Positions 18,133-42,660 are shown, counted from the stretch's first letter. The stretch: DNA of 64,000 bases from Myxococcales bacterium (GCA_016793325.1 JAEUKI010000056.1:4221-68220); one strand, 5' to 3'. The notes: generated from the letters alone by a model not told the origin. Numbers and translations: made by a program.

Positions 18133-18305
18133 TTCTGCGCGGCGCGACCGACGCTCGCCGATTGCACACGACGCGCACGAAATCGCGAAAGTCCCTGGAA
18201 TCTCGCTGAGCAAGCGGTCATCGCTCATTCCGTTCTGAAAGCTCCACCGCAAGCGTGGTACGAAATCTTCGCGACGGGTACTGTCTACCCGAAGCGATCG
18301 CCGCG

Positions 18306-19850: not shown

Positions 19851-20911
19851 AAGCGTCGCTCGTGTTCGATCGTCGGAGCCGACATCAAGACCTCGCGGCG
19901 TCTCGCGCGCTGAGCATCGTCGTTGTCTCGATCGCCGTCGTGCTCGCGGCGCGAACGACGTTTGCGCAAGCCGACGCGGGCACGCGCGGTGACGCGGCCA
20001 TTCGCGGCGATGCGGGACCTTCCGCCGACGCGAGCGCGAGCGCAGTTGCCGTCGACCCGCGCGCCGCCGAGGCTCGCGGCGCGTTCGAACGAGGCGTCGC
20101 GTTGTCGCAAGAAGAGCGGTGGGGCGAGGCGCTCGAAGAGTTCCGACGCTCGATGGAGCTCGTCGAGCGGCCGAGCACGGCGTTCAACATGGCGACGACG
20201 CTCGTTCGGTTGGGGCGTCACGTCGAAGCGATCCGCGCGTTCGAGCGGTACGTGCAGCTCGCCGACCCCGTCGCCGACGCCGCGCGCTTCGCGAGCGTGC
20301 AAGAGCAACTCGTCGCCGAGCGAGCCATCGTCGCCACGGTGCAGCTCACGGTCGAACCTGCGACTGCGGAGCTCCGGGTCGACGGTCGCTCGACGAGCGA
20401 GACGGGCGTGAGTCGAACGCTGACGCTCGACCCTGGGTCGCACACGATCGAGCTCAGCGCGCCGCGGCATCGGGCGTTTTCGACTGCGTTTCGGCTCACC
20501 AACGGCGAGCGGCGCGCGATCGACGCGAGGCTCGAAGCGGTCACCCTCGCGACGCTCGAGGTCAGCCCGAGCGACCCGTCTGCGATCGTCACGGTCGACG
20601 GCGCGCCGTTCGGGCGCGGGCCTCGGCAGGTCGCCGCAGGAGCACACGAAATCAACGTCACGGCGGTCGGCTACGACCGCTATCGTCGTCGCGTCACGCT
20701 CGAGCCCGAGAGCACGCTGCGCGTGGACGCGGCGCTGCAACGGACGGTCGTCGTGAGGCCCCTTCACGCGAACCCAGTGTTCTGGGCGGTGGTCGGCGGC
20801 GGCGTGGCCGTCGTCGCGACCGCGGTGATCCTCGGCGTCGCGCTCACGACGCAGGCGCCCGAGCTAGGCACGTCCACTGGGATCGTGATTCAGGGCTTGT
20901 CCGACCGCTGA
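19844..20911 (+). CDS. Secreted TPR-like + PEGA-domain protein with C-terminal TM anchor
   Basis: Overlaps kinase stop (operon). Signal peptide IVVVSIAVVLAARTTFAQA. PEGA-like beta-sandwich repeats (LTLDPGSHTIELSAPRHRAF; GAHEINVTAVGYDRYRRRVTLEPES). Terminal TM VFWAVVGGGVAVVATAVILGVAL. Confidence 0.6.
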   Translation: MVEASLVFDRRSRHQDLAASRALSIVVVSIAVVLAARTTFAQADAGTRGDAAIRGDAGPSADASASAVAVDPRAAEARGAFERGVALSQEERWGEALEEFRRSMELVERPSTAFNMATTLVRLGRHVEAIRAFERYVQLADPVADAARFASVQEQLVAERAIVATVQLTVEPATAELRVDGRSTSETGVSRTLTLDPGSHTIELSAPRHRAFSTAFRLTNGERRAIDARLEAVTLATLEVSPSDPSAIVTVDGAPFGRGPRQVAAGAHEINVTAVGYDRYRRRVTLEPESTLRVDAALQRTVVVRPLHANPVFWAVVGGGVAVVATAVILGVALTTQAPELGTSTGIVIQGLSDR

Positions 20912-23398: not shown

Positions 23399-23932
23399 AT
23401 GAGCGACGACGAGCGAGACACTCGAAGCGGTCCGCGCTCGCCTCGGTGGTTCGCCGCGGGCGCGCTCGGGCTCGGGCTGCTCGTCGGCGTCGCGCTCTAC
23501 TCGGGCGTCGCCACGAGCGGCGGCGCGACGTGCCCATCGCGCTGGCTCTTCGACGCCCCCTGCGCCGGCTGTGGGATGACTCGCGCGTTCGAAGGGCTGC
23601 TTCACGGCGACCTCGGCTACGCGCTTCGCGCGAACGTCGTTTCGCCGGTGCTGTTCACGCTCGCCGCGATCGTCGCGCTCGTGTTCGGCGCGCAGCTCGC
23701 GACCGGACGCGACCTCTACCGCGCGCTCGCTGCGCGGAGGCTCGTGCGCGGCGGCGTATCAGCGCTGCTCCTCGCGCTCGTATTGATTGCGTGGGTTAGT
23801 AATCAAATGCGCCACAAGCGCGGCGAAGGTCCACTTCACCTCCGCACGTGGCATCACGAGCACGGGCGAGCCCCGCTCGTCGATCTGCCGGGGGGCGAGC
23901 GGCAGGGTCAATCGCGGCCGGTCGCGCACTGA
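23399..23932 (+). CDS. DUF2752-domain membrane protein
   Basis: Start MSDDERD. Signature CPSRWLFDAPCAGCGMTRAF (CPxxxxxxxPCPGCGxTRA of DUF2752) followed by TM helices. Confidence 0.75.
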   Translation: MSDDERDTRSGPRSPRWFAAGALGLGLLVGVALYSGVATSGGATCPSRWLFDAPCAGCGMTRAFEGLLHGDLGYALRANVVSPVLFTLAAIVALVFGAQLATGRDLYRALAARRLVRGGVSALLLALVLIAWVSNQMRHKRGEGPLHLRTWHHEHGRAPLVDLPGGERQGQSRPVAH

Positions 23933-25803
23933 CAGAGCGAGCGTCGCGCGAGCATCGCGCACTGGCCTGCGCGGAGCCGCGCGACGTCGTCCGCGGCGGG
24001 TCCGGGGCCGAGGCGAGCGACCTGTCCGACGACGGTCTGCAGCTCGTCACATCGATCGCTCGTTCGAAGGAGCACCCTCGCCCGCTGCGTGGCGTCGAGC
24101 AGCGCGATCCGCTCGCGCGCGAGGCGTCCAGCGCGGCGACGAGCGTCGCTCGTCGGGCCGAACACCGTCTCTTCAGCGAGCACGCGCGCCGCGGTGCGCG
24201 AGCCCGCGAAGGACGCAGCGTGCAACAACGTCTCTGCGGCGCTCGCGGCGCTGTCGTCGGCGAGCGCCTTCGTGAGCGCGCGCACGAGCGGCTCGTCTTC
24301 GACGAGGCTCGGGTCTCGCGAGACGGCGTCGGCGAACGTGGCGACCGCTTCGCTGTTCTTTCGATCGGCGCTGAGCAGCAGCGCGAGCTGATACGCGACG
24401 AGCCCGTCGTCGTCCGCGTGGGGTCGACGCGCGCGCCGGCCGCGGAGCATTTCGATCGCCGCCGTGGTGTCGCCACGAGCGGCGACCCTGAGGGCGCGGG
24501 CGACCTCGCTCTCGCCACGGAGCGCGCTCATTCGGCGCGCCATCGGGAGCGCGCGGCCCTTGGGCGCGTTGCTGTGCGTGAGCGAGTACACGACGCTGTA
24601 GACGCCCGAGAGCAGGACGCCGACCGTCACGAGCAGCACCGGGAGCAGCACGACGAGCGGCACGTAGCCGAAGCGCCCCAACCAATACACAGGGAGGCCA
24701 GCGATCTTCGACGGCGGAACGAACCCGGTTTGCGTCGCGCTCCGCGGTTCAGCTCGGTCTTGGACGGTCGGCGCCGTGTTGGACACCGTGGGCGGCGCGG
24801 TGAGGTCGCTCGCGGACGCGAGCACCGTGTTGTGGTGCTGCATCGCTGACGCAGGCTCGGTCGACGCGTATGCGTACGCCGATCGTGCGACGGCGTCGGC
24901 GAGCGCGACGTCGATCGCTTCCATCGCGTCGGCGACGGAGGCGTACCGCTCGATGGGGCTCTTCGCGAGGACGCGATCGAAGACGCCGTCGATCGCTGGC
25001 GGGAGCTCGGGCGCGAACGACGTCGCGCGAGGAATCGCGCCATTGACCTGCAAATCGAGCAGGTCGATGAGGTTCTTGTGGTCGAACGGCTTTCGCCCTG
25101 CGAGCAGCTCGAACGCGAGGATGCCGAACGCGTACTGATCCGCTGCGGCGTCGACGCGGCGGCCGAGCGCTTGTTCGGGGGACATGTAGTGCGGCGTTCC
25201 GAAGATCACGCCGGTCTGCGTGAGCGGCTTCTCGCTGTCGGTCGCGCTCGTCATGCGCGCGATGCCGAAGTCGATGATCTTCACGAGCTCGTCGGCGCCA
25301 GGTCGATCGACGACGAGGATGTTCTCGGGCTTGAGGTCGCGGTGAACGATCCCGAGGTTGTGCGCGCGCGTGAGGGCCGACGCGATTTGTCGCAGCAATT
25401 TCAGGGCGCGAAGCAGCGAGACTCGCTCGTCGCTCGCGGTCACTTCGCGGAGCGAGCGCCCCTCGATGTACTCCATCGCGAGGAAGAACGTCCCGTCTTG
25501 GAGCTGACCGAAGTCCGTCGCTGCGACGACGTTTTCGTGGTCGAGCTGGGCCATGGCGCGCGCTTCGCGCTCGAACCGCGCCCGCACCTCGGGGTTGGCG
25601 TGCATGTCCGCGTGCAGCGTCTTGATCGCGACCTTCTTGTGCAGCGCGACGTGCTCCGCGACGTAGACGGCGCCCATCCCGCCTTCGCCGATGCGCTCGA
25701 GCACGCGAAAGCGCCCGGCGACGACGGCGCCGACGAGCGGGTCGGGCGCGGGCGCAGCGAGCGCGTTCGAGGGACCAACGGTCTGTGCGTCGCGATCAGT
25801 CAT
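23908..25803 (-). CDS. Ser/Thr protein kinase with TM helix and C-terminal TPR-like helical domain
   Basis: Start MTDRDAQ. GEGGMGAVY, VAIK, HRDLKPEN, DFG, SPE motifs. TM LVVLLPVLLVTVGVLLSGVY. Confidence 0.85.
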   Translation of the reverse strand: MTDRDAQTVGPSNALAAPAPDPLVGAVVAGRFRVLERIGEGGMGAVYVAEHVALHKKVAIKTLHADMHANPEVRARFEREARAMAQLDHENVVAATDFGQLQDGTFFLAMEYIEGRSLREVTASDERVSLLRALKLLRQIASALTRAHNLGIVHRDLKPENILVVDRPGADELVKIIDFGIARMTSATDSEKPLTQTGVIFGTPHYMSPEQALGRRVDAAADQYAFGILAFELLAGRKPFDHKNLIDLLDLQVNGAIPRATSFAPELPPAIDGVFDRVLAKSPIERYASVADAMEAIDVALADAVARSAYAYASTEPASAMQHHNTVLASASDLTAPPTVSNTAPTVQDRAEPRSATQTGFVPPSKIAGLPVYWLGRFGYVPLVVLLPVLLVTVGVLLSGVYSVVYSLTHSNAPKGRALPMARRMSALRGESEVARALRVAARGDTTAAIEMLRGRRARRPHADDDGLVAYQLALLLSADRKNSEAVATFADAVSRDPSLVEDEPLVRALTKALADDSAASAAETLLHAASFAGSRTAARVLAEETVFGPTSDARRRAGRLARERIALLDATQRARVLLRTSDRCDELQTVVGQVARLGPGPAADDVARLRAGQCAMLARRSLCQCATGRD

Positions 25804-25861
25804 ACGGAGGCTTTGCAAGCGGGACTCGGTACCAAGGAAACGCCTGTCGGCGCTCGTTCAT

Positions 25862-28506: not shown

Positions 28507-28619
28507 AACCGCCGCTCGTTCGATCGCCGTACTTTTCTCGATGGATTCGTGGCGGTTCGACTTGATTTCAAGCACGCCAACGCTCGTCTCATTTCGAAGA
28601 CGTTCAACGCTGGCGTGGT
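28507..28619. ncRNA. Copy A of a ~113-nt conserved intergenic element (candidate sRNA or MITE). ~83% identical to copy B at 40276..40388
   Basis: Direct alignment of the two intergenic copies. Two predicted hairpins conserved, with wobble/compensatory changes (GAUCGCCGU/GUGGCGGUUC and GCACGCC/GGCGUG). The implied peptides are not conserved, so the conservation is at nucleotide level. Confidence 0.4.
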
Positions 28620-28651
28620 TCGTCGGCGCCCGGCTCCGTCGGGGACGCGCG

Positions 28652-30568
28652 CTACTCGAGCAGGTGAGCCACGCTCATGAGCGCGATGATGACGCCGAGC
28701 AGCGACTCGCCGGCGATGATGCCGGACGCGACGGGGATCGTGTACGTCTCGGCCTTCTTCTCGTTGTAGCGAGAGAACGCGTACGCGAGCAGCGCGCCGA
28801 TGAACATGCTCACGGAGTTCCACGCGGGGATCACGAGGGCGAGGCCGACGCCCATCGCGCTCGGGAGGTACTTCTTGTGCTTGGGAAACGCGAGCTCGAG
28901 CAGCGGCAGGACGATGCCGATGATCCCGCCGATCAACATGCCCCAGCGCGCCGTGGGATGCAGCGAGTGGACGCCGTGCGAGAGCGCCTCGGCGACGCCC
29001 TTCCACACCTGCGCGGCGGGCGCTGGAAAGCGATCACCGCCGAGCGCCGCCGGCGTCGGCACGAGCACATAGAACAGCGGAACGATCACGAGCGTCCCGA
29101 CGAACGTCCCCGAGAACTGCGCGAGAAACTGCCGACGCGGGTTGGCGCCGAGCAGGTAGCCGCTCTTCAAATCCGTGAGCAAATCTGCAGCGCTTCCCGC
29201 GGCGCCCGCGGTGATGCTCGCCGTGAGCAGGTTGGTCGTGACGTTGGCCGGCGCGAGCACTCCGTACGTGAGCTGCGTGATCTTGCCCATCGCGCCGACG
29301 GGCGTCGTGTCGGTCTCTCCCGTCGCGCGGCACGCGACGATCGCGAGGACGAACGAGAGAAGCACCGCGATGATCGAGAGCCACGGCGCGATTCCGAACC
29401 CGAGCCAGCCGACGATCACGAGGCCGATCGTCGCGAAGAGCATGCCCGCGCCGAACCACGAGTTGGGCACTTCGATCGCCGCCATTTGATCCTTCTCGGT
29501 GATCTCGCTTCCTTCGCGGTACGGGGCACCCTCGCCCGCCTTCGTCTTTCGTCCGCCGAAGCCGCTGAAGGCTCGGAGGATCGTGCGCCACTGCAGCGCG
29601 AAGGTGAGCAAGCCCGAGGTGACCATCAACGCGGCGCCGGGCCACAGCGACCACGAGACGATTCCGCGGTACGAAATGCGGGTGATTCCGCCCATCGCGT
29701 GGATCTTCGGCGCGAGGTAGCCGTAGTTGAGCAGCGCCGCGGCCAGCATCGACGCGGTCGTGCGAAGGCCCATCATCGCGCCCGCCGCGACCATGATGAG
29801 CGACCCTTCGAAGCCGATCGTCCACGTGAGCGCGGGTTGTCCCGCGATCGTGAGCTTCGGAATCCCGAAGGTCGCCGGGATCTTCGAGAGCTTCGTCAAG
29901 ATCCCGAGGACGCCGGCCTTGTTGACCGCGTGCGCGTCGCGGAGCCACGCGACGACAGCGCCCACGCCCATCGCAGCGAAGAGCGCGCGAGCCTTCTTCG
30001 CGGACTCTTCACCGGCAGAATACAGAGATCGAAGCGTCTCGGCTGCGGCCGTTCCGCTCGGAAACTGAAGCTGCTCGACGTTGATCATCTGGCGCTTCAT
30101 CGGGATGGCCATCACGGTCCCGAGCACCGCGAGCAAGAACGTCCACGCTACGAGCAGCGGCCACGGCATGTGCGATCCCTTCACGAGCAGGTACGCGCAC
30201 ATGGCGGAGACCATCGTTCCACCGGTGGAATAGCCCGCAGAAGACGCGGTCGACGCCATCGCGTTGTTCTCGAGGATCGACAGGTTGCTCTTGAACAACC
30301 CGATCGCTTGCAGTCCTCGCCCGAGCGCAAACGACAAGATGCACGCGGTGATCGCGACGCCCAAGCCCCAGCCGGTCTTAAGACCAACGTACAGGTTGGA
30401 CGCCGCCATCACGACGCCGATCACCGAGCCCATCACGAAGGACCGCAGCGTGAACTGCGGCATCGTGTCGCCCTGGTAGACGGTCTTGAACCAGTGCGCC
30501 TCTGGGTCGACGCCGTCGGGAACAGTCTGTTTGCCAGCCGCAGCAGTCTCTGCGCTCTCGATGTGCAT
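28652..30568 (-). CDS. OPT-family oligopeptide transporter
   Basis: 638 aa polytopic protein with OPT signatures (NLYVGLKTGW, GYSTGG, ANPRRQFLAQ). Confidence 0.85.
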   Translation of the reverse strand: MHIESAETAAAGKQTVPDGVDPEAHWFKTVYQGDTMPQFTLRSFVMGSVIGVVMAASNLYVGLKTGWGLGVAITACILSFALGRGLQAIGLFKSNLSILENNAMASTASSAGYSTGGTMVSAMCAYLLVKGSHMPWPLLVAWTFLLAVLGTVMAIPMKRQMINVEQLQFPSGTAAAETLRSLYSAGEESAKKARALFAAMGVGAVVAWLRDAHAVNKAGVLGILTKLSKIPATFGIPKLTIAGQPALTWTIGFEGSLIMVAAGAMMGLRTTASMLAAALLNYGYLAPKIHAMGGITRISYRGIVSWSLWPGAALMVTSGLLTFALQWRTILRAFSGFGGRKTKAGEGAPYREGSEITEKDQMAAIEVPNSWFGAGMLFATIGLVIVGWLGFGIAPWLSIIAVLLSFVLAIVACRATGETDTTPVGAMGKITQLTYGVLAPANVTTNLLTASITAGAAGSAADLLTDLKSGYLLGANPRRQFLAQFSGTFVGTLVIVPLFYVLVPTPAALGGDRFPAPAAQVWKGVAEALSHGVHSLHPTARWGMLIGGIIGIVLPLLELAFPKHKKYLPSAMGVGLALVIPAWNSVSMFIGALLAYAFSRYNEKKAETYTIPVASGIIAGESLLGVIIALMSVAHLLE

Positions 30569-30736
30569 GAGGTGCGCGAGCGTACCAGAGCGCGAATCCG
30601 CCCACGCCTACGGACATCGCCGAAGAAGCGCGCTCGGAGCGGTCACGAGGGTTGACTTAGTAACATACTGCAACTAAGTCCCCGGGCGTCGCTGGGACTA
30701 TGCTCCCGCGGCCATCGAAGGAGGCGCCGAGCAGCC

Positions 30737-33265
30737 ATGAACGAGAGGGATATCAGCCGAGAGCGCGTACGAGAGAGGGATCTCGTGCTCGCCCCCAACG
30801 AGTTCGCGTTCATCTCCGACGAGACGAAGGGAAACATCAACGTCTACGTCGGCCCCCACAAAACAAGCCTCGCGAACACCGATCAGCCCGTGGTGTTCGA
30901 CTACGAGACCAAGCGCTTCAAGCGCGTCACGCTCGAGCAAGCGATCGGCGTGCTCGCGGTCGCGCCCGAGGGCTGGTATCTCGTGCTCAAGAACCCCGCG
31001 CGAGACAGCTCGCACCCGAGGACGGGCGCGCTCAACAACCTCCCCGAGCTCGACGTCGGTCGAAAAGTGAACACGCCCGGCCCGGTGTCGTACGCGCTCT
31101 GGCCGGGGCAGATGGTGAAGGTCGTTCCGGGGCACAGCCTGCGGTCCAACCAGTACTTGCTCGTGCGCGTGTACGACGAGGAGGCCGCGAAGACGAACTG
31201 GGCGAAGGCGGTGATCAAGCGCCAGACCGCGCCAGGGACGGACCCCGTCGCAGAGGGCTCCGAGCAGGGCGTCTTCGATCCGAGCAAGAACGTGCCCGAG
31301 CTCACGATGGGCAAGCACCTCGTGATCCGCGGGACGGACGTGTCGTTCTACATTCCTCCGACGGGCGTCGAGGTCGTCGCGGACGAGCAGGGCAAGTACG
31401 TCCGCGACGCGGCGACGCTCGAGCGGCTCGAGTACACGATCCTGCTCGATGAGGACGGAAACAAGCGGTTCATTCAGGGTCCCGCGGTCGTGTTTCCGAG
31501 GCCGACCGAGACGTTCATCGAGCGCAACGGGAGCCGAAAGTTTCGTGCGATCGAGCTGACCGAGATCGCCGGCGTCTACGTGAAGGTCATCGCGCCCTAC
31601 GAAGAGAACGGCCGCGCGTACAAGGTCGGCGACGAGCTGTTCATCACGGGCCGCGAGCAGATGATCTACTTCCCTCGCCCCGAGCACGCGCTCATTCGCT
31701 ACGGCGGACGCGAGATCCACTATGGCATCGCGATCCCTGCCGGCGAAGCGCGGTACGTCCTCGACCGCACCCAGGGAAACATTCGCCTCGAGCGCGGACC
31801 GACGGTGTTTCTCCCGGACCCGCGCCGCGAGGTGATCGTCCGCAAGGTGCTCGATCCCAAGACGGTCGACCTGTTGTTTCCCGGCAACAAGGACGCGCTC
31901 GAGTACAACGCGAGGCTGTCGGCGCTCAAGCGCTCGGAGGCCGGCAACGAGTTCGTGATCGACGACGAAGCGCGGCAGGTCGCGCAGCGCTCGCGCGACA
32001 TGGCCGCGCCCGAGAAGAGCAAGGCAGAGGCCGCGTTCGTCGGCGACGCCGTCACACGAAATCAAACGTTCACCCCGCCGCGGACGATCGTCCTCGACAA
32101 TCGCTTCGAGGGAGCCGTCTCGATCGACCTGTGGACGGGCTACGCGGTCCTCGTGAAATCCCGCTCGGGAAAGCGACGCGTCGAGGTCGGCCCCACGGTG
32201 TTTCTGCTCGAGTACGACGAGAACCTCCAGGCGATGGAGCTCTCGACGGGCACGCCCAAGTCCGACGACAAGGTCATGCGCACCGCGTACCTGCGCGTGA
32301 AGAACAACAAAGTGAGCGACCTCGTCGAGGCCGAGACGTCGGACCTCGTCCGAGTCCACATGCGCCTCTCGTATCGGGTCGACTTCGAGGGCGACGCGTC
32401 GCAGTGGTTCGGCGTCGAAAACTACGTCAAATTCCTCACCGATCACCTGCGGTCGCTCTTGCGTCACGCGGTCAAGCAGCACGGCGTCGAGCCGTTCTAC
32501 GGCAACGCGGTGAGCATCATCCGCGACGTGATCCTCGGCCCGCAGGGCGAAGACGGAAAGCGACCCGGCCGGCGCTTCACCGAGAACGGGATGCGCGTCT
32601 ACGACGTCGAGGTGCTCGGCGTCTCGATCGGCGACGAGGCCATCGCGAAGCTCCTCGTCGAAGCGCAGCACGCGTCCGTGCAGCAAGCGCTCGCGGTCGC
32701 GAGCGAGCGACGGCGCCTCGAGCTCACGCGAGCCCGTGAGTCCGCGCGGCAAGAGTCTGCGGCGCTCGAGTCGCAGACCAAAGTGCAGCTCCTCGAGATC
32801 GAAGGGCGCGAGGTCGAGCGCAAGCACGCCGTCGAGCTCGCGCGGATCAAGGCCGAGTCCGACACGCGCGAAAACCGCCACAAAGCCGAGGTTGCGCTTC
32901 AGTCGTTGCTCGACGCGGTGTCCGCGGCGCAGCTCGCGCGCGAGCGAGCGCGGGCGCAGTTCGACGACGAGGTCGCGCGGGCCGAGCTCGATCGAACGGT
33001 GCGCGAGCTCGACGCGCAAGTGCGCGCGACGGCGGAGAAAGCCAAGGCGTTTACGCCCGATCTCGTGGCGGCGCTGCAGGCGTTCGGCGATCGCGCGCTC
33101 GCGGCGAAGATGGCCGAGAGCATGGCCCCGCTCGCGATCCTCGGCGGAGAGAGCGTGGCGGACGTCCTGCGTCGGCTGCTCGAAGGGACGTCGGTCGCCG
33201 ATGTCCTCGCGAAGGTCACCGCGAAATCCGAGGCTCGCGCGTTGCCCGAGGGCTCGAACTCGTAG
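30737..33265 (+). CDS. Major vault protein (MVP)-like protein: N-terminal MVP repeats + shoulder (SPFH-like) + long C-terminal coiled coil
   Basis: Strong SD aaggagg before ATG. At least 5 tandem ~55-aa repeats with the MVP-repeat GP core (VYVGPHKTSL; NTPGPVSYALWPGQMV cf. MVP GPxSFxLxPGE; IQGPAVVFPRP; ERGPTVFLPDP; EVGPTVFLLEY). ~150-aa heptad-rich cap-helix-like C-terminus. Size 842 aa (MVP ~850-900 aa). Confidence 0.75.
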   Translation: MNERDISRERVRERDLVLAPNEFAFISDETKGNINVYVGPHKTSLANTDQPVVFDYETKRFKRVTLEQAIGVLAVAPEGWYLVLKNPARDSSHPRTGALNNLPELDVGRKVNTPGPVSYALWPGQMVKVVPGHSLRSNQYLLVRVYDEEAAKTNWAKAVIKRQTAPGTDPVAEGSEQGVFDPSKNVPELTMGKHLVIRGTDVSFYIPPTGVEVVADEQGKYVRDAATLERLEYTILLDEDGNKRFIQGPAVVFPRPTETFIERNGSRKFRAIELTEIAGVYVKVIAPYEENGRAYKVGDELFITGREQMIYFPRPEHALIRYGGREIHYGIAIPAGEARYVLDRTQGNIRLERGPTVFLPDPRREVIVRKVLDPKTVDLLFPGNKDALEYNARLSALKRSEAGNEFVIDDEARQVAQRSRDMAAPEKSKAEAAFVGDAVTRNQTFTPPRTIVLDNRFEGAVSIDLWTGYAVLVKSRSGKRRVEVGPTVFLLEYDENLQAMELSTGTPKSDDKVMRTAYLRVKNNKVSDLVEAETSDLVRVHMRLSYRVDFEGDASQWFGVENYVKFLTDHLRSLLRHAVKQHGVEPFYGNAVSIIRDVILGPQGEDGKRPGRRFTENGMRVYDVEVLGVSIGDEAIAKLLVEAQHASVQQALAVASERRRLELTRARESARQESAALESQTKVQLLEIEGREVERKHAVELARIKAESDTRENRHKAEVALQSLLDAVSAAQLARERARAQFDDEVARAELDRTVRELDAQVRATAEKAKAFTPDLVAALQAFGDRALAAKMAESMAPLAILGGESVADVLRRLLEGTSVADVLAKVTAKSEARALPEGSNS

Positions 33266-33361
33266 CCGCCAACCGCGGCCGACGCGCGAGAAAGGCGCGT
33301 GAATCGGGCACCGCCGCGGGCGCGACGAGGTGGGTGGCGCGCGTGCGGTGATTCTGCGACG

Positions 33362-35053
33362 ATGAACCGCGTGAGACGATGGCGTTCGCGCGCGGACAAC
33401 GCGTGGTTGGCTGCATGGGCCTTCGCGGTGGGACTCGCGACGGTGAGCGTCAACGCTCCGCGGGACGCGCTCGCGCAAGAGTGCCGACGCATGTGTCTCG
33501 TCGGCGAGGTGCGCGACGCAAACGGCTGTTGCGGACCGGCCGCGACCGCTCCGCCGACGGTGCGCTGCCCCGCGGGCACATCGTGGAACGAGTCGCAGCG
33601 CGCGTGCGTCGGCCGCCGCGTGTGTCCGTCGGGCTCGCATCCCGAGGGCAGCCGTTGCGTCGCGGACGCGGTCGCTTGCCCGCCGGGCACCGATCGACGC
33701 GATGGGCAGTGTGTCCTGCAAATTTCCTGTCCAACCGGCAGTCGACTCGAGGGCTCGCGCTGCGTGAGCGACGTCACGTGCCCCGCGGGGACGACGTTGA
33801 CCAACGGAGCGTGCGTCTCGCAAGACGTCACCTGCCCGTCGGGCACAACGCGACGCCCCGAAGGCGGCTGCGTCGCCACGCCCACGTGCCCCACCGGAAC
33901 GAACTTCGTCGAAGGCCGCGGCTGCGTCGCGCCGCTCGTCTGCCCGCCGCTCACCCACGTCGACGGCGATCACTGCGCGCCCGATCACGTGTGCGTCGAG
34001 GGCGAGCAGTGGATCGACGGCGCGTGCCGCTCGGTGTGCGCTTCGATTACGCATTCGCGTTGGGACGGCGAGCGGCGCTCGTGCGTATGCAACGAGGGCT
34101 TTCGCGCCGAGGGAGGCCAGTGCACCGCGGTCAGCGCGCGATGCCCAGAGGGATCGCACACCGAGGGCTCGCAGTGCGTCGCCGACGTCGTGTGCCCCGA
34201 TGGCTACCGCTATCAAGCGGGGCGCGGGTGCATCGATCCGCTCGCCGAGGCGCGCGCGGCTGCCGAGCGCATCGCTGGCCAGCGTGAGGATGCCGCGCGA
34301 CGCGAGCAGCTCCGCCGCGAAGAAGAAGAGCGACGCGTGACGCGATGGGGACGCGGACCGGGCGTGCAGCTGTCAGCGGGCGGCGGGTTTCAATTCGTCT
34401 ACATGCCCAACGCGTACGCGGCCGGTCAACCGACGAGCCCCACGGCTGTCGAAGCGAGATCCACAGCGCAAGCCGCGTGGTTGAACGGCGTCGTGACTGG
34501 GACCGCGTCGGTGATCGTCAACGACTTCTCGCTCTCCGTCGTATACACGTGGGGACCTGGGAGCACGTGGCAAACGCCGTCGCCGTCGGGCTTCGGAGTC
34601 GGCGACTCGAGGCCGTGCCCCAATCCGTCGCAGCCGACTTCATCTGCGCAGCGTTCGGACGGTGGTTGGTGCGTACAGACCGTTCCGATGCACGTCCTGA
34701 TGCTCGACGTCGGGCAGCAAGGCGTCGGTCCGAGGCACGCGTGGCGCATCGGGCTCGGCGCGGGGTGGGAGTTCGGAAGCGGCGCCCTCGCGTCGCAGCT
34801 CAGCTATCGCTCGACCATCAAGCTCGTGGCTGGGCTCTTTCTCGCCGTGGATGTCCGCGCGTTGTTCTTCGTCCGGCTGCTCGAGAACAACGTCACGCAG
34901 ATGAACTCGGTGATCAGCCGCGAAGTGCTTCAGACGCCCGCTGGATTCGATCGCGACGTCGAGCTCCCTGGCCTCGCGCGCGTCCAAGCGGGAACGCCTC
35001 CCGTCGGCGTCGGCGGCGCGCTGACGCTCTCGCTCGGCTACTCGATTCACTGA
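33362..35053 (+). CDS. Secreted Cys-rich repeat protein (~10 tandem CPxGT...C modules) with distinct C-terminal domain
   Basis: Signal peptide MNRVRRWRSRADNAWLAAWAFAVGLATVSVNA. Repeats RCPAGTSW..C, VCPSGSHPEGSRC, ACPPGTDRRDGQC, SCPTGSRLEGSRC, TCPAGTTLTNGAC, TCPSGTTRRPEGGC, TCPTGTNFVEGRGC. Confidence 0.6.
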   Translation: MNRVRRWRSRADNAWLAAWAFAVGLATVSVNAPRDALAQECRRMCLVGEVRDANGCCGPAATAPPTVRCPAGTSWNESQRACVGRRVCPSGSHPEGSRCVADAVACPPGTDRRDGQCVLQISCPTGSRLEGSRCVSDVTCPAGTTLTNGACVSQDVTCPSGTTRRPEGGCVATPTCPTGTNFVEGRGCVAPLVCPPLTHVDGDHCAPDHVCVEGEQWIDGACRSVCASITHSRWDGERRSCVCNEGFRAEGGQCTAVSARCPEGSHTEGSQCVADVVCPDGYRYQAGRGCIDPLAEARAAAERIAGQREDAARREQLRREEEERRVTRWGRGPGVQLSAGGGFQFVYMPNAYAAGQPTSPTAVEARSTAQAAWLNGVVTGTASVIVNDFSLSVVYTWGPGSTWQTPSPSGFGVGDSRPCPNPSQPTSSAQRSDGGWCVQTVPMHVLMLDVGQQGVGPRHAWRIGLGAGWEFGSGALASQLSYRSTIKLVAGLFLAVDVRALFFVRLLENNVTQMNSVISREVLQTPAGFDRDVELPGLARVQAGTPPVGVGGALTLSLGYSIH

Positions 35054-35056
35054 CCG

Positions 35057-37057
35057 TCAGCTGACGGTCTTGACGCAGCGGAAGCCCACGTTTTCAAGAA
35101 GCAGTCGCTCGGCCGGCGAGCACGCGGCGCTCGCGCAACCAGCGTTGCGATACAGCAGACCCGCGGGCGCCGCGGTTCCTGCTGGGAGCGTCTCGCGCAA
35201 CGGCAGGCCACGGACCGTTCGATAGGGCTGCTGCCAGTTGGGCGTGCGCCCGTCGTCGTCGCGAAAGCTCGACGAGGTCCACTCTTGTCCGTTCGTCGCG
35301 AGCCCGGCGATCTCGTCTTGAACGGTGTCTGCCGCGAACGACCCCGCCGGCAACAGTCGCCCTGCGCCGCCCGCGAACGCAGGGAGCCCCGCGGGCGCTG
35401 GGCCATCCCACGGCTCGACGCGAGGTTGCCCGCGGCGACCCGCAAATTCCCACTGTTCTTCGGTGGGAAGCGAGCCCCCGATCGCCGCGCAATACGCCGT
35501 CGCGCTCGACCACGCGACGTTCACCGCGGGAAGCGCCGCGCGCGCCTCGGGCAGCGACGGAACCCACGGTGGGATCATCAGCCTGTGCTCGTGGTTCGAC
35601 TCGCTCCACGCCTCGTACTCGCCGAACGTGACCTCGCGCTTCATGATCCGAAACGCGGGACCCGAGAACTGCACGTGCGCGCTCGGAAGAAAGCCTCCGC
35701 GCGTGTCCGTCTCTGCCGCGCGACCGAGCGTCACGGGCGCAGCGGGCGCGGCGACGAGCGCCCAGCGCGTCGGGTCTTCGGGCGGCGGAGTCCACACCGC
35801 GCGCGGGCTCGAGGCGTCCGAGCCGGCAGCGACCACGGCGCCAGCGTCGGCCGCAGCGTCGAGCGCGGCGTTGCGGCGCTTCACCCAGAGGGCGCCGACG
35901 ACGGAGCCGCCGACGGCGACGACGAGAAACACGCCCACAAAAACAAGCCACGATCGCGATCCGCCCTCTTGATCGTGGTCGTGATCATCGTCGGATTCTT
36001 CGGGCGCGTCGGACCTGCGCGCCGTCGATTTGCGAAGCTCCTCGACGGGCGTCTCGACCGTCTCGGTGTCGTTCGCCTCCGAGCCGCTTGATTGTTTGTG
36101 TCCCCACGGCCCCGCGAGGTCGGGCACGGCGACGATGGGCCTCGAGACGCCCGTCGTTCGACGCGGTCGAATGTGCTCTTCGAGCGCTTGTTCGACCGCC
36201 TCGAGCAACGCGGCGACGGTGTCGTACCGTTGGTCGCGGTGCATCGCGAAGGCCTTCTCGAACACGGGGTCGAGCGACGGCCCGAGGTCGGCGCGGAGCG
36301 CAGCGAGCTTGGGGCGCGTCGGGTCCAAGATCTTTCCGATGACCTCTTGATAGGTCGAGCCGTCGAACGCCGCGCGCTGCGCGAGCATCTCGAAGAGCAC
36401 CGCGGCCATCGCGAAGATGTCCGTGCGTCGGTCGATGCTGCGGACGTCGCCGAGCACCTGCTCGGGGGACATGTACTGAATCGAGCCGATGATCTTTCCG
36501 ACCTCGGTGCGGCCGAGCGAGTGCGAGCTGTCCTTGCCCAAGATCCTGGCGACGCCGAAGTCGAGGACCTTGACCATCACGGCGGGCGATCCGATGCCCT
36601 GCACCATGATGTTCTCGGGCTTCAAATCGCGGTGGACGATGTTCTTCTGGTGCGCCGCGAGCACGCCCGCGCACGCCTGACGAAACACCGAGAGCGCTTC
36701 GTCCGCGGACAGAAGCCTTCGCTCCTCGGAAGCACGATCGAGGACCTTGCGCAGCGGCTCGCCCTCGACGAACTCGCTGACGAGGTACGGAACGCCGTGG
36801 TCCTCGCCGAATTCTAGGAGCGCCACGACGTTGGGGTGCGAGAGAGCGGCAGTGGCCTGGCCTTCTTGCCAGAAGCGACGCACGACCTCTTCGTTCGCGA
36901 GGTGCTGCTGGAGGAGAAATTTGACGGCGACGTGCCGCCCGAACGCCTTCGCGTCGGACGCGATCCACACCTCGCCGAACGCTCCCTCGCCGAGCTGCCG
37001 CTCGAGCGTGTAGCGCGTGGCGATGACGGCGCCTGTCTTTCGGTCAGCGTCAGCCAT
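35057..37057 (-). CDS. Ser/Thr protein kinase fused via a TM helix to a C-terminal FGE-sulfatase (formylglycine-generating-enzyme-like) domain
   Basis: Start MADADRK (M81 of ORF). Kinase motifs GEGAFGEV, VAVK, HRDLKPEN, DFG. TM WLVFVGVFLVVAVGGSVVGALWV. C-terminal FGE-like motifs (REVTFGEYEAWS, NVAWSSATAYCAAIGGSLPTEEQWEFAGRRG, GFRCV). Confidence 0.85.
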   Translation of the reverse strand: MADADRKTGAVIATRYTLERQLGEGAFGEVWIASDAKAFGRHVAVKFLLQQHLANEEVVRRFWQEGQATAALSHPNVVALLEFGEDHGVPYLVSEFVEGEPLRKVLDRASEERRLLSADEALSVFRQACAGVLAAHQKNIVHRDLKPENIMVQGIGSPAVMVKVLDFGVARILGKDSSHSLGRTEVGKIIGSIQYMSPEQVLGDVRSIDRRTDIFAMAAVLFEMLAQRAAFDGSTYQEVIGKILDPTRPKLAALRADLGPSLDPVFEKAFAMHRDQRYDTVAALLEAVEQALEEHIRPRRTTGVSRPIVAVPDLAGPWGHKQSSGSEANDTETVETPVEELRKSTARRSDAPEESDDDHDHDQEGGSRSWLVFVGVFLVVAVGGSVVGALWVKRRNAALDAAADAGAVVAAGSDASSPRAVWTPPPEDPTRWALVAAPAAPVTLGRAAETDTRGGFLPSAHVQFSGPAFRIMKREVTFGEYEAWSESNHEHRLMIPPWVPSLPEARAALPAVNVAWSSATAYCAAIGGSLPTEEQWEFAGRRGQPRVEPWDGPAPAGLPAFAGGAGRLLPAGSFAADTVQDEIAGLATNGQEWTSSSFRDDDGRTPNWQQPYRTVRGLPLRETLPAGTAAPAGLLYRNAGCASAACSPAERLLLENVGFRCVKTVS

Positions 37058-38895
37058 CACTCGATGAATACACGCACACGAATATCGTTGCTCGCCCCGT
37101 CGCGCCACGCGACGGCGAAGCGCCCGGTTCCGCCGAAGGCCGCCGACGGCGTCTCGCGGTTGCCGCCCGCGGGCCCGCCCTCGTCCGCGCTCGCGTTGAG
37201 CTCGAAGTCCGCGGTGCTCGCGTTGAAGCGATTGACGGCCTGAGAGCCATCGACGCGCGCGAGTCGACCGCGGATCGTTCCGCCGGCGTTTTGCCAAGCG
37301 ACGAGGACGGTGCCGCCGGGGCTCATCGCGACGGTCGGCGCGGACTGGTCACCCTCGACCGTGGTTGGAGCGAGTCGATCGGCGCCCATCGGCGCGAGCG
37401 CTCCCGAAAACGCGCGCCAGCGCACGGCGGAGCCGCTGTTGTCCATCGGGTCCGACATGCTCGTGTCGCGCCACGCGACGGCGACGTTGGTTCCGTTGGT
37501 CGCGATCGCGACTTGATCTTGATCACCTGTGGTCTGTGTCGACGCGACGGCAGGTGCGCCCATGAGCGTTCCTGCGCTCGAGATCTTCGCGACGTACACG
37601 TCCTTCGCGCCGACGCCGCCGCTCACCCACGCGGCGGCGAAAGAACCGTCGCTCAGGCCCACGACGACGGGCGAAGACGCGGTCGTCGATCCCGGCATTC
37701 CCGCTGGGACGAGCGGCGCGTCGGCCATCGGCGCCGCGGGCATCGCCGCGAGCGTCGTGCTCGACGTTCGAAGCACACCCGCAGTCGCGTCCTCCCACAC
37801 GAACAAGACGCGCGTGCCGCCGATGGCGACCGATGGATTGATCATCCCGAGCATTCCGCTGCCGGCGGTAGTCGCATTGACCAGCATCTGTTGCGGCGTC
37901 GGCGCGTCGAAGCCCGTCTGCGCGAAGCCGTTGATGTCGAAAACCGTGTTGGTGCGCTCGACCGTCTGCCACACCGCCGCGAATCCCGCGGCCGAAGCAG
38001 CGACGCGAACGGTCTTCTGCTCCCCGCGAGCCATCGAGTCGAGCGGGAGGTCCCTCGCTAGAATAGCGGGGCTTGTAATCAAGCGCCCGTTGGGGTCGAG
38101 CATGCGCACTTGCGGGTCGTCTGTCGCTCCTGCGGGGCTGAACCCGATGACCATGTTCTGCGACGCGGCCCACGCGACGCTCGGCTGGTCCTTGCGGCCC
38201 ATGATGGAGGTCGCGACGCTGAGCTCGGGGATGCGGCAGCGCGCGTTGCAGTACTCGTTGGGCATGCCCTCGTCGCAGATTTCGTTGCTCGAGATCATCG
38301 TGTCGCCGCAGCGGCCGATGTCCGCGACCTCTTGCATCTCGACCGGAACGCTGACGGTCTGACCCGCGTTGGCCATGATCGTCGCGCAGCCCGAGCCGAG
38401 CAGGCGGCGCACGGTGCTGCCGCCGGGCCCCGGTGCGCTGCCCGAGCCTTCGATGAGCACGATGTACGTCTTGCCACCGGGGACGCGCTGCATCTGCATC
38501 GTCCCAGTTTTGGGAAAGCACGTGTCGACGGGGGTCGCTTCACCGTTCTCCATGCGGAGCTGCGCCCAACGCGTGGTGTCGCATCGCTCGTGCGGCGGAA
38601 CGCTTCGTCCCGCGACCGTCGCGTACGGATCGGTCCCCGTCAGTCGCCCCGTCATGGTGTCGCACGCGATGTCACCCGTGCGCTCGAACACGCGGAGGTG
38701 AAGCTGCTCGTCCAAGCGATCGAGCGTGATCTGCGGAACACGCACGCGCATCGCGAGCGGCGCAGGCGCGTCCGTTGCGGCAGGGGCACATCCCGCGGCG
38801 AGCGCGCTGGCGCTGGCGAGCAACGACAAGAGCGAGCGCGTTGACGCGGCGCGATGCGCCCCCGCGATCCGCGCCTCGGGGCGCGAGCGTTCCAT
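37057..38895 (-). CDS. Hypothetical secreted lipoprotein (613 aa), translationally coupled (TGATG overlap) to the STK-FGE gene
   Basis: Lipobox LLSLLASASALAAGC. Beta-rich repetitive body (A/G/T-rich with VAWRD/VAWQN repeats). Confidence 0.6.
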   Translation of the reverse strand: MERSRPEARIAGAHRAASTRSLLSLLASASALAAGCAPAATDAPAPLAMRVRVPQITLDRLDEQLHLRVFERTGDIACDTMTGRLTGTDPYATVAGRSVPPHERCDTTRWAQLRMENGEATPVDTCFPKTGTMQMQRVPGGKTYIVLIEGSGSAPGPGGSTVRRLLGSGCATIMANAGQTVSVPVEMQEVADIGRCGDTMISSNEICDEGMPNEYCNARCRIPELSVATSIMGRKDQPSVAWAASQNMVIGFSPAGATDDPQVRMLDPNGRLITSPAILARDLPLDSMARGEQKTVRVAASAAGFAAVWQTVERTNTVFDINGFAQTGFDAPTPQQMLVNATTAGSGMLGMINPSVAIGGTRVLFVWEDATAGVLRTSSTTLAAMPAAPMADAPLVPAGMPGSTTASSPVVVGLSDGSFAAAWVSGGVGAKDVYVAKISSAGTLMGAPAVASTQTTGDQDQVAIATNGTNVAVAWRDTSMSDPMDNSGSAVRWRAFSGALAPMGADRLAPTTVEGDQSAPTVAMSPGGTVLVAWQNAGGTIRGRLARVDGSQAVNRFNASTADFELNASADEGGPAGGNRETPSAAFGGTGRFAVAWRDGASNDIRVRVFIE

Positions 38896-38958
38896 GACCA
38901 TGCGCGGAGTGTACCAGCGACTCTGCGCGATACGGGAGCAACTACGTGCGCGATCAAA

Positions 38959-40450: not shown

Positions 40451-41164
40451 ATGACCACGCAACGAACCTTCGCGGCCCGATGGCTCGGTCGCGTCCCGTA
40501 CGAGCGCGCGACGGCGCTGCAGCTCGAGCACTTCGAGCGCCGAAAGCGCGGCGAAGGCACGGACACGCTCCTCTTGCTCGAGCACGACCCGGTCCTCACG
40601 CTCGGTCGCAGCGCAGACGGGTCGAACGTCGTGATCAGCGACGAAGAGCGCCTCGCGCGCGGCGTAGACCTCGTCTCGACGACGCGCGGCGGGGACGTGA
40701 CCTACCACGGCCCGGGGCAGCTCGTGGCGTATCCGATCTTCGATCTACGGCCGGATCGATGCGACGTTCGAAAATATGTGCGCGACCTCGTCGAGGTGAT
40801 GTCTCGGCTGTGCGCGGACTTCGGCGTCGGCGCAGGGCCGCACTCGAACATGATCGGCGCGTGGGTCGACCTCGACGCGCCCCGCGACAAGTGGCCCGGC
40901 GACGCGGCCGCGAAGCACCCTGCGAAGATCGGCGCGATCGGCGTGAAGATCTCGCGCTGGATCACGATGCACGGCTTCGCGCTCAACGTCCGGACGAAGC
41001 TCGATGACTTCGCCATGATCGTCCCGTGCGGAATCGCCGAGCACCCAGTGTGCTCGCTCGAGTCCATCGGCGTGAGTGACGCGCCGGGACTCGCCTGGTT
41101 CGCTCGGCGCGCGGTGGGACACTTCGAAGACGTCTTCTCGGCGCGCTGCGTCGATGGTCCATGA
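40451..41164 (+). CDS. lipB: Lipoyl(octanoyl) transferase
   Basis: Start MTTQRTF. LipB motifs (RWLGRVPYERA, HDPVLTLGR, GGDVTYHGPGQLVAYPI, KIGAIGVKISRWITMHGFALNV with catalytic Cys region PCGI). Confidence 0.85.
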   Translation: MTTQRTFAARWLGRVPYERATALQLEHFERRKRGEGTDTLLLLEHDPVLTLGRSADGSNVVISDEERLARGVDLVSTTRGGDVTYHGPGQLVAYPIFDLRPDRCDVRKYVRDLVEVMSRLCADFGVGAGPHSNMIGAWVDLDAPRDKWPGDAAAKHPAKIGAIGVKISRWITMHGFALNVRTKLDDFAMIVPCGIAEHPVCSLESIGVSDAPGLAWFARRAVGHFEDVFSARCVDGP

Positions 41165-42660
41165 CCGCGATCGATCGCGACGATCCTCGGGACGATCTCG
41201 ACGCGCTCGAACGACGCGCGCTCGACGACCGCGACGCGCTCGAAGCGCTGCTCGTTCGGTGCGCCGCGATCGCCCGTGAATCGCACCTGTTTTCGCCGGA
41301 CCCCGACGCCTTCGCGCGGTGCGGTCGCGCGATCGAGCTCTTCGACCTCGCCTCGCTCGACGGCGCCCCGCTCGGTGAGCGCTCGCGCGAAGCGGTCGCG
41401 CAACTCTCGAGCGCACTCGGTCGTCGCGCCCTCGCTGATGGTGCCCCCGAGCTCGCGGTGACGCAGCTCGAACGCGCTCGGAGCGCAGCGCTGCGAGCGC
41501 CGAGCGAACGCGCGGTCGTGCTCCACGATCTCGCGCAGTGCTACGAAGTCCTCAGCGACGCGGCGACCGCGGAGGCTCGTTGGCGCGAGTGCCTCGATGC
41601 GTGCGCCGAGAGCGCGCCGTCGGTCGAGCGCGATTTCTACGAGCGGACGTCCGCCGAGCGGCTCGCGTCGAGCGCTCGATCGCGAAACGATCGCCTCGAG
41701 GCGCAGCGATTCGAGCGCATCGCGGACGCGTGCGACGACCGCGAGATCGAGCGCGAGGTCGCGCAAAACGCGGAAGCCGAGCGTTTTTTCAGCGCGGCGT
41801 GGGACGGGACAACGCCGCCACAGATCGCCCACGAGGCGCGGTGGATCGAGCGCTCGCAGGGCGTGGTTCACGCGACACGACCAAGCGAAGTCACGCGCGC
41901 CGAGGACCTCGTCGCGACCGTCGAGTGTCCGATCATCTTCGGTCCCGCGCGAGACGATCGCTGCCTATGCGGCGCGGTCGAGGGACGATCGCAGCGCGGC
42001 GTTGTGTGCGATCGGTGCGGCGTCGAAGTGCAGCGCGCGGCGCGGAGGCGAGCGCGGTTCGGGCACATCGAGCTCGCCGAGCGGCGCTTCCACCCGTGCG
42101 CGCTCGTCGACGGCGCGTTCGGCTCGCTCGTGTCGCTCGCGCTCGACCTCGACCCTGCGCGGCTGGCGTTGGTGCGCTCGCGCGCTCGGTGCATTCGCTA
42201 CCTCGCGCGCTCGCCGCGCGGGGTCGACACGTTGGCGCCGGACTCCGAAGAGCTCGCGGCGTTCGACGCGGGCCGAGGAGACCCAGCGTTCAACGTCGCG
42301 ACCGGCGACGAGGCGATCATGGACGCGCTCGCGTCGCTCGATGCCCGGGGCGCGCGTGACGAGGTGCAGCTCGAGCTTCGCGCGCTTCGCGCACACAAGA
42401 CCGCCCATCGAGCGGACGTTCGTTCGCGCGTCGATTGGCTCGCGGCGCGGGGCGAAGCGCTCGCGCTGCTCGAAGCGGGCGCGTCGCTGTTGATCGAGCG
42501 CGTTCCCGTGCTGTCGCAGCCGCGGCTCGCCGAGATGGGGCGCAGCGACGCGGTGACGCCATTGTACGAGGCGCTGCTCGGGGCCCAGAGCGGCCACGAA
42601 ATCGACGTCGCGCTCGCGGCGCTGGTGCGTGCGTTTGCAGCGACGCCAACACACGCGTGA
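41161..42660 (+). CDS. Hypothetical protein containing an RNA-polymerase beta-prime N-terminal zinc-ribbon (ZBD)-like segment; start overlaps lipB stop (ATGA)
   Basis: Residues ~250-310: AEDLVATVECPIIFGPARDDRCLCGAVEGRSQRGVVCDRCGVEVQRAARRRARFGHIELA. E. coli RpoC 58-105: [57 protein letters not shown]. Identical CxC-12-CxxC spacing. The rest of the protein is helical with no RNAP similarity. Confidence 0.65.
   Translation: MTAIDRDDPRDDLDALERRALDDRDALEALLVRCAAIARESHLFSPDPDAFARCGRAIELFDLASLDGAPLGERSREAVAQLSSALGRRALADGAPELAVTQLERARSAALRAPSERAVVLHDLAQCYEVLSDAATAEARWRECLDACAESAPSVERDFYERTSAERLASSARSRNDRLEAQRFERIADACDDREIEREVAQNAEAERFFSAAWDGTTPPQIAHEARWIERSQGVVHATRPSEVTRAEDLVATVECPIIFGPARDDRCLCGAVEGRSQRGVVCDRCGVEVQRAARRRARFGHIELAERRFHPCALVDGAFGSLVSLALDLDPARLALVRSRARCIRYLARSPRGVDTLAPDSEELAAFDAGRGDPAFNVATGDEAIMDALASLDARGARDEVQLELRALRAHKTAHRADVRSRVDWLAARGEALALLEAGASLLIERVPVLSQPRLAEMGRSDAVTPLYEALLGAQSGHEIDVALAALVRAFAATPTHA

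Follow-up and report, generated by a model that had tools for sequence, protein, structure and literature searches.

A full-length bacterial relative of the major vault protein in a Myxococcales genome: domain map, cap-helix pattern and possible assembly

Background

Major vault protein, or MVP, serves as the shell protein of the eukaryotic vault, whose function is still described as unknown in recent literature. The MVPs of rat, human and rabbit have 861-893 amino acids (aa) and a colinear order of repeats, SPFH shoulder, long cap helix and C-terminal tail (PDB 4V60, 4HL8, 9BW5, 9Z4W). Here, we analysed a gene from Myxococcales bacterium whose 842-aa product shares this order. It lies within a stretch of 64,000 nucleotides (nt; GCA_016793325.1 JAEUKI010000056.1:4221-68220), which as a whole we call the window. 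An earlier note, made from the sequence alone, had proposed it as a bacterial MVP homologue.

Putative bacterial MVP homologues were described by Daly et al. in 2013 (PMC3762200), with about 25% identity to eukaryotic MVPs. Their set comprised two Plesiocystis pacifica SIR-1 copies together with sequences from Corallococcus, Microscilla, Saprospira, Flexibacter, and Herpetosiphon, and the bacterial homologues were predicted to fold and dock like MVP. Sokolskyi (2019; bioRxiv 10.1101/872010) included the protein A0A0C2D5V5 among those analysed and reported a link with gliding bacteria, and a 2023 preprint described MVP copies in phages. Asgard MVP homologues (Nat Microbiol 2026, PMC12962969) are likewise prokaryotic and present repeats, shoulder and cap helix, known from prediction only. 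For the Asgard representative, five repeats are reported, and its model is a cup of ten subunits; in the same paper, some Asgard sequences group with eukaryotic MVPs.

The window protein has the same length and architecture as the published bacterial MVP-like proteins (A0A0C2D5V5, Plesiocystis), and nothing of substance differs. What other bacterial MVPs lack, and the clade of the window protein has, is a particular upstream palindrome and a Cys-rich neighbour downstream. When compared to eukaryotic MVP, the flexible loop before the last repeat and the two-faced periodicity of the cap helix are common to both, whereas the window protein has seven predicted repeats instead of nine, a longer helical insert, an identity of 16-20% and no detectable similarity to the cap ring. 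The SPFH/Band 7 cages (HflK/C, QmcA, stomatin, prohibitin, flotillin, erlin) are anchored in the membrane and have no counterpart of the N-terminal repeat wall, which is about 510 residues long. Their N-terminal anchor, a transmembrane segment or a hairpin, stands directly before the SPFH domain; the window protein has none there, and its SPFH domain starts at residue 523.

Identification of the MVP homologue

The window gene encodes a full-length relative of the eukaryotic vault-shell protein, as confirmed by domain models, profile searches and a predicted structure. The Pfam family MVP_shoulder (PF11978) matched residues 523-633 over model positions 2-118 of 118, with an E-value of 4.9e-26 and 91.5 bits against a cutoff of 25, and it also matched 30 of 30 close relatives. 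Vault_3 (PF17795) matched residues 477-513 above its gathering threshold (E-value of 4e-8). NCBIfam and PADLOC gave no match for the MVP homologue.

For searches against the PDB, we built a family profile from 67 relatives that were 39-76% identical to the query. This profile retrieved seven distinct sequences at E <= 0.01, all of them MVP and none an SPFH protein. The top match (E-value of 2e-40) placed profile positions 457-780 on residues 460-816 of rat MVP. Weaker co-linear matches spanned the repeats, and the mouse R1-R7 fragment alone was matched with an E-value of 0.0014.

Structure prediction of the monomer, which the earlier note had proposed as a check, pointed to the same family. 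The AlphaFold2 model, computed from an alignment of the 67 diverse relatives and without templates, had a mean predicted local distance difference test (pLDDT) score of 81.7, and most of the repeat region exceeded 90. An earlier run from the 30 close relatives had reached 50.8, with only the shoulder and the helix confident. The top Foldseek matches of the model were full-length rabbit, human and rat MVP (E-values from 1e-34 to 1e-27, over 855-933 alignment columns), and the crystal structures of mouse MVP R1-R7 were matched at 1e-16. Flotillin, prohibitin, HflK/C, stomatin and erlin appeared at E >= 7e-7, over 180-430 columns that covered the shoulder and the helix only.

The earlier note would have given up the MVP assignment if no shoulder or repeat model had matched, or if the best match had been to SPFH or flotillin families alone. 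Neither was the case, because the Pfam thresholds were passed, the PDB profile matches were MVP-only, and the SPFH cages matched the shoulder and helix alone. The best matches were full-length MVPs, repeat array included.

The gene runs from an ATG start over 30737..33265 on the + strand. A Shine-Dalgarno-like AAGGAGG, read from the sequence, lies at 30718..30724 (+), 12 nt 5' of the ATG, so that both the 842-aa open reading frame (ORF) and the strong ribosome-binding site described before were borne out. This site is kept as GAAGGAG or GGAGGA in three close relatives (L001-L003). The product is identical to NCBI MBL8681939.1, annotated as 'hypothetical protein JNK05_22420 [Myxococcales bacterium]'. 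An antisense ORF at 30698-34216, overlapping the MVP gene, has the composition of a non-coding frame. The window holds only one MVP copy, and the loci compared have no tandem paralogue within 10 kb.

The protein has zero cysteines. Its highest 19-residue Kyte-Doolittle hydropathy is 1.19, with no hydrophobic segment, and neither a lipobox nor a signal peptide was found in the 842-aa sequence. We thus predict a cytoplasmic, soluble protein without a membrane anchor.

Domain organisation

The map of seven repeats was drawn from the secondary structure of the model, its pLDDT profile and a recurring sequence motif; all its parts lie on the + strand. Beta-repeats B1-B6 occupy 30773..31852 (residues 13-372), divided into B1 (13-65), B2 (66-133), B3 (134-215, with a variable low-confidence loop at 163-193), B4 (216-262), B5 (263-322), and B6 (323-372). 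Before B7 stands a segment at 31853..32101 (residues 373-455) that includes a helical insert (373-423) and a low-confidence or disordered loop (424-442), delimited by the AlphaFold2 model, its pLDDT and low conservation. The last repeat, B7, lies at 32102..32302 (residues 456-522), where Vault_3 matches and the rat alignment begins at rat residue 460. The SPFH-type shoulder follows at 32303..32635 (residues 523-633), and the earlier note had seen a shoulder-like region after the repeats. The cap helix (32636..33043, residues 634-769) is a single helix in the AlphaFold2 model and aligns to the rat cap helix. The C-terminal helical region (33044..33232, residues 770-832) is predicted as short helices (774-832) with pLDDT of 50-65, and the C-terminus carries the family motif PxLxAALQxFGD...PLAILGGxSV...LLxGT, whose columns are conserved within the bacterial family.

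Each repeat unit presents the motif h-x4-hhhh-x-D/N-x2-G-x2-R-h-x2-G-[P/T/R]-x2-hhh-x-P-x-E. The GP core is present in five units (near residues 39, 115, 248, 354, and 485), and G-T or G-R replaces it in two (near residues 199 and 305). The earlier count of at least five tandem MVP-type repeats with GP therefore stands, with two further units added, and the fold of the array matches mouse R1-R7. A self-comparison of the whole profile (hhalign) was tried for the repeats and gave only long weak off-diagonal chains, and a unit-by-unit comparison was used instead. Among 28 profile-profile pairings, with E-values per comparison, B1-B6 reached 2e-6, B3-B5 3.6e-5, B4-B7 3e-4, and both B4-B6 and B2-B3 8e-4. 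These values support homology among the repeat units, and they suggest two sub-types, B1/B4/B6/B7 and B2/B3/B5.

In the profile alignment, B4-B6 fall on rat residues 294-409 and B7 on rat 460 onward, with bacterial 349 corresponding to rat 409 and 457 to rat 460. From this mapping, the bacterial protein appears to be shorter than mammalian MVP by two repeats in its N-terminal half. On the same alignment, B7 is the counterpart of the mammalian repeat that directly precedes the shoulder. Human MVP has a flexible loop at 429-449 (PMC13347060), and the bacterial insert occupies the same position and is longer.

Cap helix and conservation

Where the earlier note had described a coiled coil of about 150 residues, the long helix was retained and its length became 136 residues (634-769), in one continuous predicted helix. 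It contains 28 Ala, 20 Glu, 18 Arg, and 15 Leu, a composition that resembles the human cap helix, which is Ala/Leu-packed and charge-decorated (PMC13347060). We tested the periodicity of the helix against 2000 shuffles. The ordinary coiled-coil periodicity of 3.4-3.7 residues was discarded: it was not enriched, and 923 of the 2000 shuffles reached it.

The family-averaged hydrophobicity had one dominant peak at 0.444 cycles per residue, with a power of 64 against a shuffle maximum of 19 +/- 4.7 (1/2000). This peak was the strongest in 48 of the 67 individual relatives, and the window protein alone had its dominant cap-helix periodicity at 0.446 cycles per residue (1/2000 shuffles). As a control, we used the rat cap helix (rat MVP residues 647-802, reconstructed from the profile alignment), where the dominant peak was at 0.452 with a power of 115 against 28.6 +/- 11.9 (0/2000 shuffles). 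A frequency of 0.444 aliases to 0.556, and the latter is the second harmonic of a helix with a period of 3.6 residues, so that the predicted helix has two apolar faces about 180 degrees apart. Such a two-faced pattern fits the expectation for a helix that packs against one neighbour on its left and another on its right, in a palisade one layer thick. Each half-vault has an experimentally solved 39-mer helix bundle, of which the rat cap helix is a part (PMC13347060).

Cap-helix length varies little among the 67 relatives (median of 136, range of 118-158, gap fraction of 0.02). In the same set, the cap helix is the least conserved long region, with a mean top-residue frequency of 0.34, and the repeats and shoulder are well conserved, with 0.55-0.75. 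Within the family, conservation is highest in the repeats, which is what lateral contacts between them would lead one to expect. Both the number of repeats and the length of the helix are kept among relatives at 39-76% identity. Altogether, these features of the cap helix and of conservation fit a self-assembling shell subunit.

Possible assembly and alternative explanations

On balance, we consider it probable, if not strongly so, that the protein is cytoplasmic and that its subunits self-assemble laterally to give a dome or a vault-like shell. Copies would associate side by side, as in MVP and the related SPFH cage proteins, with the shoulder domains forming a ring. Through Ala/Leu faces on two opposite sides, the cap helices would pack laterally and make up a barrel of parallel helices, closing the dome, and the repeat array would be the thin wall beneath the shoulder and cap. 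A hollow homo-oligomeric cup would result, and such cups may pair into a closed vault-like particle in the cytoplasm. Its cellular role may be sequestration, storage or scaffolding. The gene stands by itself, with its own Shine-Dalgarno site, a clade-conserved palindromic operator-like site, and no cargo, RNA or enzyme partner nearby. That closed cages of two halves are built from seven-repeat MVP, without TEP1, PARP4 or vault RNA, in Myxococcota and other bacteria is a tentative proposal, which we would sooner doubt than assert.

Several results weigh against a vault-like protein and shell. The classical Vault repeat of Pfam (PF01505) did not match the window protein even at E <= 1, and it matched just 5 of the 30 close relatives, with a best E-value of 0.006. 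The GP motif that the earlier note had called diagnostic is therefore a resemblance and not a model match, and the Pfam check that it had suggested came out divided, positive for MVP_shoulder –and for Vault_3 as well– and negative for PF01505. A single-sequence phmmer search against the PDB retrieved nothing at E <= 0.01, and the identity to mammalian MVP in the structural alignments was only 16-20%. The seven repeats, where mammals have nine, come from a segmentation by predicted secondary structure and motif. A profile of residues 755-842 (88 residues, 32 relatives) found no MVP in the PDB at E <= 10; the C-terminal region occupies the position of the cap ring, and we claim no likeness to the rat cap ring. 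The two-faced helix speaks for a potential for lateral packing, and not for a closed cage, a copy number or a pairing of halves. Besides, no experimental study of any bacterial MVP was found in the literature. Published accounts are in silico, which agrees with the earlier description of these proteins as uncharacterised.

The main rival is a membrane-abutting dome in the style of SPFH proteins, a single cup or 'half vault' with its N-terminal rim on the inner membrane, enclosing a membrane patch. We judge it unlikely, given that the protein has no transmembrane segment or hydrophobic hairpin (maximum hydropathy of 1.19 over 19 residues), no lipobox and no signal peptide. SPFH proteins also lack the 500-residue repeat wall, which is here the most conserved part, and no NfeD or protease partner lies near the gene, unlike in QmcA-YbbJ and FtsH-HflK/C, both among the PDB matches. 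Less likely again is a scaffold that keeps the MVP fold as a monomer, dimer or filament and forms no cage, such as an element of the cytoskeleton or an adaptor in bacteria that glide or form filaments. Many record titles of our genome scan do name lineages with gliding or filamentous members (Myxococcota, Desulfonema, Cytophagaceae, Caldilinea, Anaerolineae), the same correlation with gliding appears in the 2019 preprint (bioRxiv 10.1101/872010), the cap-ring region has no detectable conservation, and there are seven predicted repeats, not nine. Against such a scaffold stand the two-faced cap-helix signature, the same as in rat MVP, and the one-stripe coiled-coil period of 3.4-3.7, which was unenriched (923/2000). 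Moreover, all solved relatives with SPFH plus a long helix among the structural matches form a closed ring or cage.

A functional two-gene module of the MVP homologue and the Cys-rich protein encoded downstream, either as shell with cargo or with an envelope partner, seems very improbable to us. Both genes lie on one strand, separated by 96 nt in which no terminator-like hairpin occurs, and the pair is kept with short spacers in four loci (L001-L004) of the 80 that we compared. Homologues of the Cys-rich protein number only 14, the remaining 76 MVP loci lack it, and none of the neighbour families recurs in more than 13 of the 80. In L004 the Cys-rich protein is 51% identical and the MVP 76%, a faster divergence, and the one is predicted to be exported and disulfide-rich, the other cytoplasmic and cysteine-free. 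The pairing is thus very probably a lineage-specific synteny kept by descent and not a functional module. Eukaryotic contamination, or a very recent transfer from a eukaryote, is already refuted. MVP is best known from eukaryotes, and the overall GC content drops slightly to 0.644 across 30001-32000. However, the MVP gene has a GC content at third codon positions (GC3) of 0.88-0.89, within the range of 0.77-0.89 of the other likely genes of the window (window GC of 68%), so its codon usage is native. A bacterial Shine-Dalgarno site, bacterial flanking genes and synteny in four related Polyangiales metagenome-assembled genomes (MAGs) likewise agree with the earlier proposal of a resident gene, and thousands of bacterial homologues have identities of 57-92%, versus 16-20% to mammalian MVP.

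Family size, distribution and significance

Bacterial homologues had been considered rare, which our searches contradict. In a collection clustered at 90% identity, at least 6,752 clusters matched at E <= 1e-5 (of 8,000 candidates scored), and a library clustered at 50% identity contained 1,365 clusters at E <= 1e-3 and 655 at E <= 1e-30. A scan of species-representative genomes with two N-terminal peptide patterns confirmed relatives in at least 219 stretches from many phyla, the closest being Polyangiales and Myxococcales MAGs at 89-92% identity. By record titles, the carriers in Myxococcota are Polyangiales, Nannocystis, Enhygromyxa, Plesiocystis, and Labilithrix. Others are Desulfonema and Desulfococcaceae; the Chloroflexota Caldilinea, Anaerolineae, and Thermoflexales; and Riflebacteria, Ozemobacteraceae, Sericytochromatia, Cytophagaceae, Moduliflexus, and Vulcanimicrobiota. 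A few further MAG taxon labels among the carriers may be binning errors.

The family is already known in silico, and many of its members are labelled 'major vault protein' by the Joint Genome Institute. The window protein is an orthologue from an uncultured Polyangiales MAG and falls within the 'chemotrophic bacterial' clade, which had already been noted in Myxococcota, Bacteroidota, and Chloroflexota. Enhygromyxa salina A0A0C2D5V5 (UniRef100) is 62% identical to it over 99% of the query and matches both PF11978 and PF17795, and the Plesiocystis pacifica SIR-1 locus (L051) encodes a 61% identical protein.

Among the more distant loci compared (L005-L080), the MVPs come from different phyla (Myxococcota, Desulfobacterota, Chloroflexota, Riflebacteria, Sericytochromatia, Bacteroidota) and have full-length identities of 57-67%, which is unusually high. 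This cross-phylum identity suggests strong constraint, horizontal spread, or both. We also observed a match of the whole model to a protein of the giant virus Harvfovirus sp. (BFVD A0A3G5A4K1, 802 aa, named 'prohibitin domain-containing protein'), over 915 columns with an E-value of 5.8e-13. Judging by this match, the viral protein seems to be MVP-like over its full length.

The locus adds little to the publications of 2013 and 2019. New here are the confident monomer model, the seven-repeat domain map and the shared two-faced cap-helix signature, together with the evidence for no conserved neighbours and the clade-specific candidate operator. Whether bacteria build vaults is a real, testable question. 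A bacterial shell protein without the eukaryotic minor components would be a simple system in which to address the role of the bare shell and the setting of its size (seven vs. nine repeats). If bacterial vault-like cages do exist, the minimal ancestral function of the vault shell would be open to study in a bacterium, and the bacterial clade could bear on the origin of eukaryotic MVP. Cultured Nannocystis, Enhygromyxa, and Plesiocystis, with orthologues at 61-63% identity, offer a better experimental entry than the MAG of the window.

Gene neighbourhood and upstream palindrome

Gene order was compared across 80 MVP loci (L001-L080), clustering the flanking ORFs within 6 kb. On the 5' side, an OPT oligopeptide transporter gene lies at 28652..30568 on the - strand, divergent from the MVP gene (PF03169, E-value of 6e-93; GC3 of 0.88). 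A + strand ORF at 28541-30655 is considered spurious because the minus-strand OPT gene has this GC3. Beyond the OPT gene come an M17 aminopeptidase and then a Ser/Thr kinase. On the 3' side, the Cys-rich gene is followed by a convergent gene for a Ser/Thr kinase fused to an FGE-sulfatase domain (35057..37297, -). Only the four closest genomes, L001-L004, keep the order OPT, MVP, Cys-rich, kinase; their MVPs share 76-92% identity with the window protein.

No conserved neighbour of the MVP gene emerged: the top clusters among the 80 loci were generic signalling proteins or low-complexity high-GC ORFs, and no family was found in more than 13 loci. The MVP gene is therefore a stand-alone unit. The earlier note saw no TEP1, PARP4 or vault-RNA partners, and this holds within the 64-kb window, where no Rfam family (vault RNA and Y RNA included) reached its gathering score and domain scans of about 30 genes found no TROVE, PARP, vWA or NfeD domain.

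The Cys-rich secreted-type protein is encoded at 33362..35053 (+), with 563 aa from the ATG and a GC3 of 0.80. The longest ORF begins at a GTG at 33299, and the ATG at 33362 fits the N-termini of the orthologues. From this ATG, the N-terminus (about residues 1-39) has a positive n-region, a hydrophobic core and an ALA-QE site, and thus resembles a signal peptide. The protein has 32 Cys and 10 matches to the motif CPxG[TS]x5-6GxC within residues 69-290, with two extra Cys pairs interspersed among these matches. Next come a linker with charged Glu and Arg residues (about 295-330) and a C-terminal domain, some 230 residues long, that matches no family. Pfam, NCBIfam, PADLOC, and PDB searches gave nothing significant for this protein, and the 14 homologues, found in a collection of 5.8 billion sequences, included twelve orthologues at 52-98% identity. 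The secreted CPxGT-repeat protein of the earlier note was hence recovered in its motifs and signal-like start, and its spacer to the MVP gene corrected from 97 bp to 96 nt. Co-transcription of the two genes is possible, because they are on the same strand at this short distance, no terminator-like hairpin lies between them, and the spacers are also short in L001-L004.

The OPT and MVP genes share an intergenic region of 168 nt. An inverted-repeat scan of this region found a perfect palindrome, GACTTAGT-N11-ACTAAGTC, at 30654..30680, whose left arm overlaps a TTGACT hexamer at 30652-30657. In the alignment of the window with L001-L004, TTGACTTAG...CAACTAAGT is invariant, whereas the surrounding intergenic sequence has freely diverged. 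The window has a single occurrence of the pattern, against a chance expectation of 0. It is present in exactly L001-L004 of the 80 loci and absent from the other 76, and a search for an upstream motif or palindrome shared among all loci found none beyond this clade.

The distance from the palindrome to the MVP ATG is 39-83 nt in 4 of the 5 genomes; on its other side, between 50 and 266 nt separate it from the divergent OPT gene. Given the steady distance on one side and the varying one on the other, the palindrome belongs to the MVP gene. It is probably a candidate operator of a dimeric regulator, overlapping the -35-like TTGACT. As for TTGACT being part of a full sigma-70 promoter, this was discarded: no acceptable -10 hexamer follows, and a promoter scan found no site.

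Other genes of the window

The rest of the window is ordinary chromosomal sequence, with genes for ribosomal protein L25, peptidyl-tRNA hydrolase, histidine kinases, an ABC ATPase, and an MMPL transporter. The gene at 2994-4730 (+) encodes a 578-aa product that matches Arrestin_N in Pfam (E-value of 8.8e-7; 29.5 bits against a cutoff of 24.9) and may be a bacterial arrestin-fold protein. At 20890-22665 (-), a 591-aa product has a full-length DUF6909 match of 678 bits.

Three eukaryotic-type Ser/Thr kinases are located within 20 kb, at 18255-19850 (+), 23908-25818 (-), and 35057-37297 (-). One of them, with an FGE-sulfatase-type domain, resembles the PADLOC PD-T4-6 kinase models. This kinase density is probably ordinary for Myxococcota, and there is no sign of a defence island.

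Two long ORFs, one of 1,693 aa at 43712-48793 (+) with a coding-type GC3 of 0.85 and one of 499 aa at 41161-42660, had no Pfam family at E <= 1e-5. The 614-aa ORF at 37057-38901 (-) had no Pfam match either, and L002-L004 have it in synteny with the MVP region, at identities of 62-66%. It is overlapped by + strand ORFs at 37529-38362 and 38369-38701, which composition-based gene picking favours.

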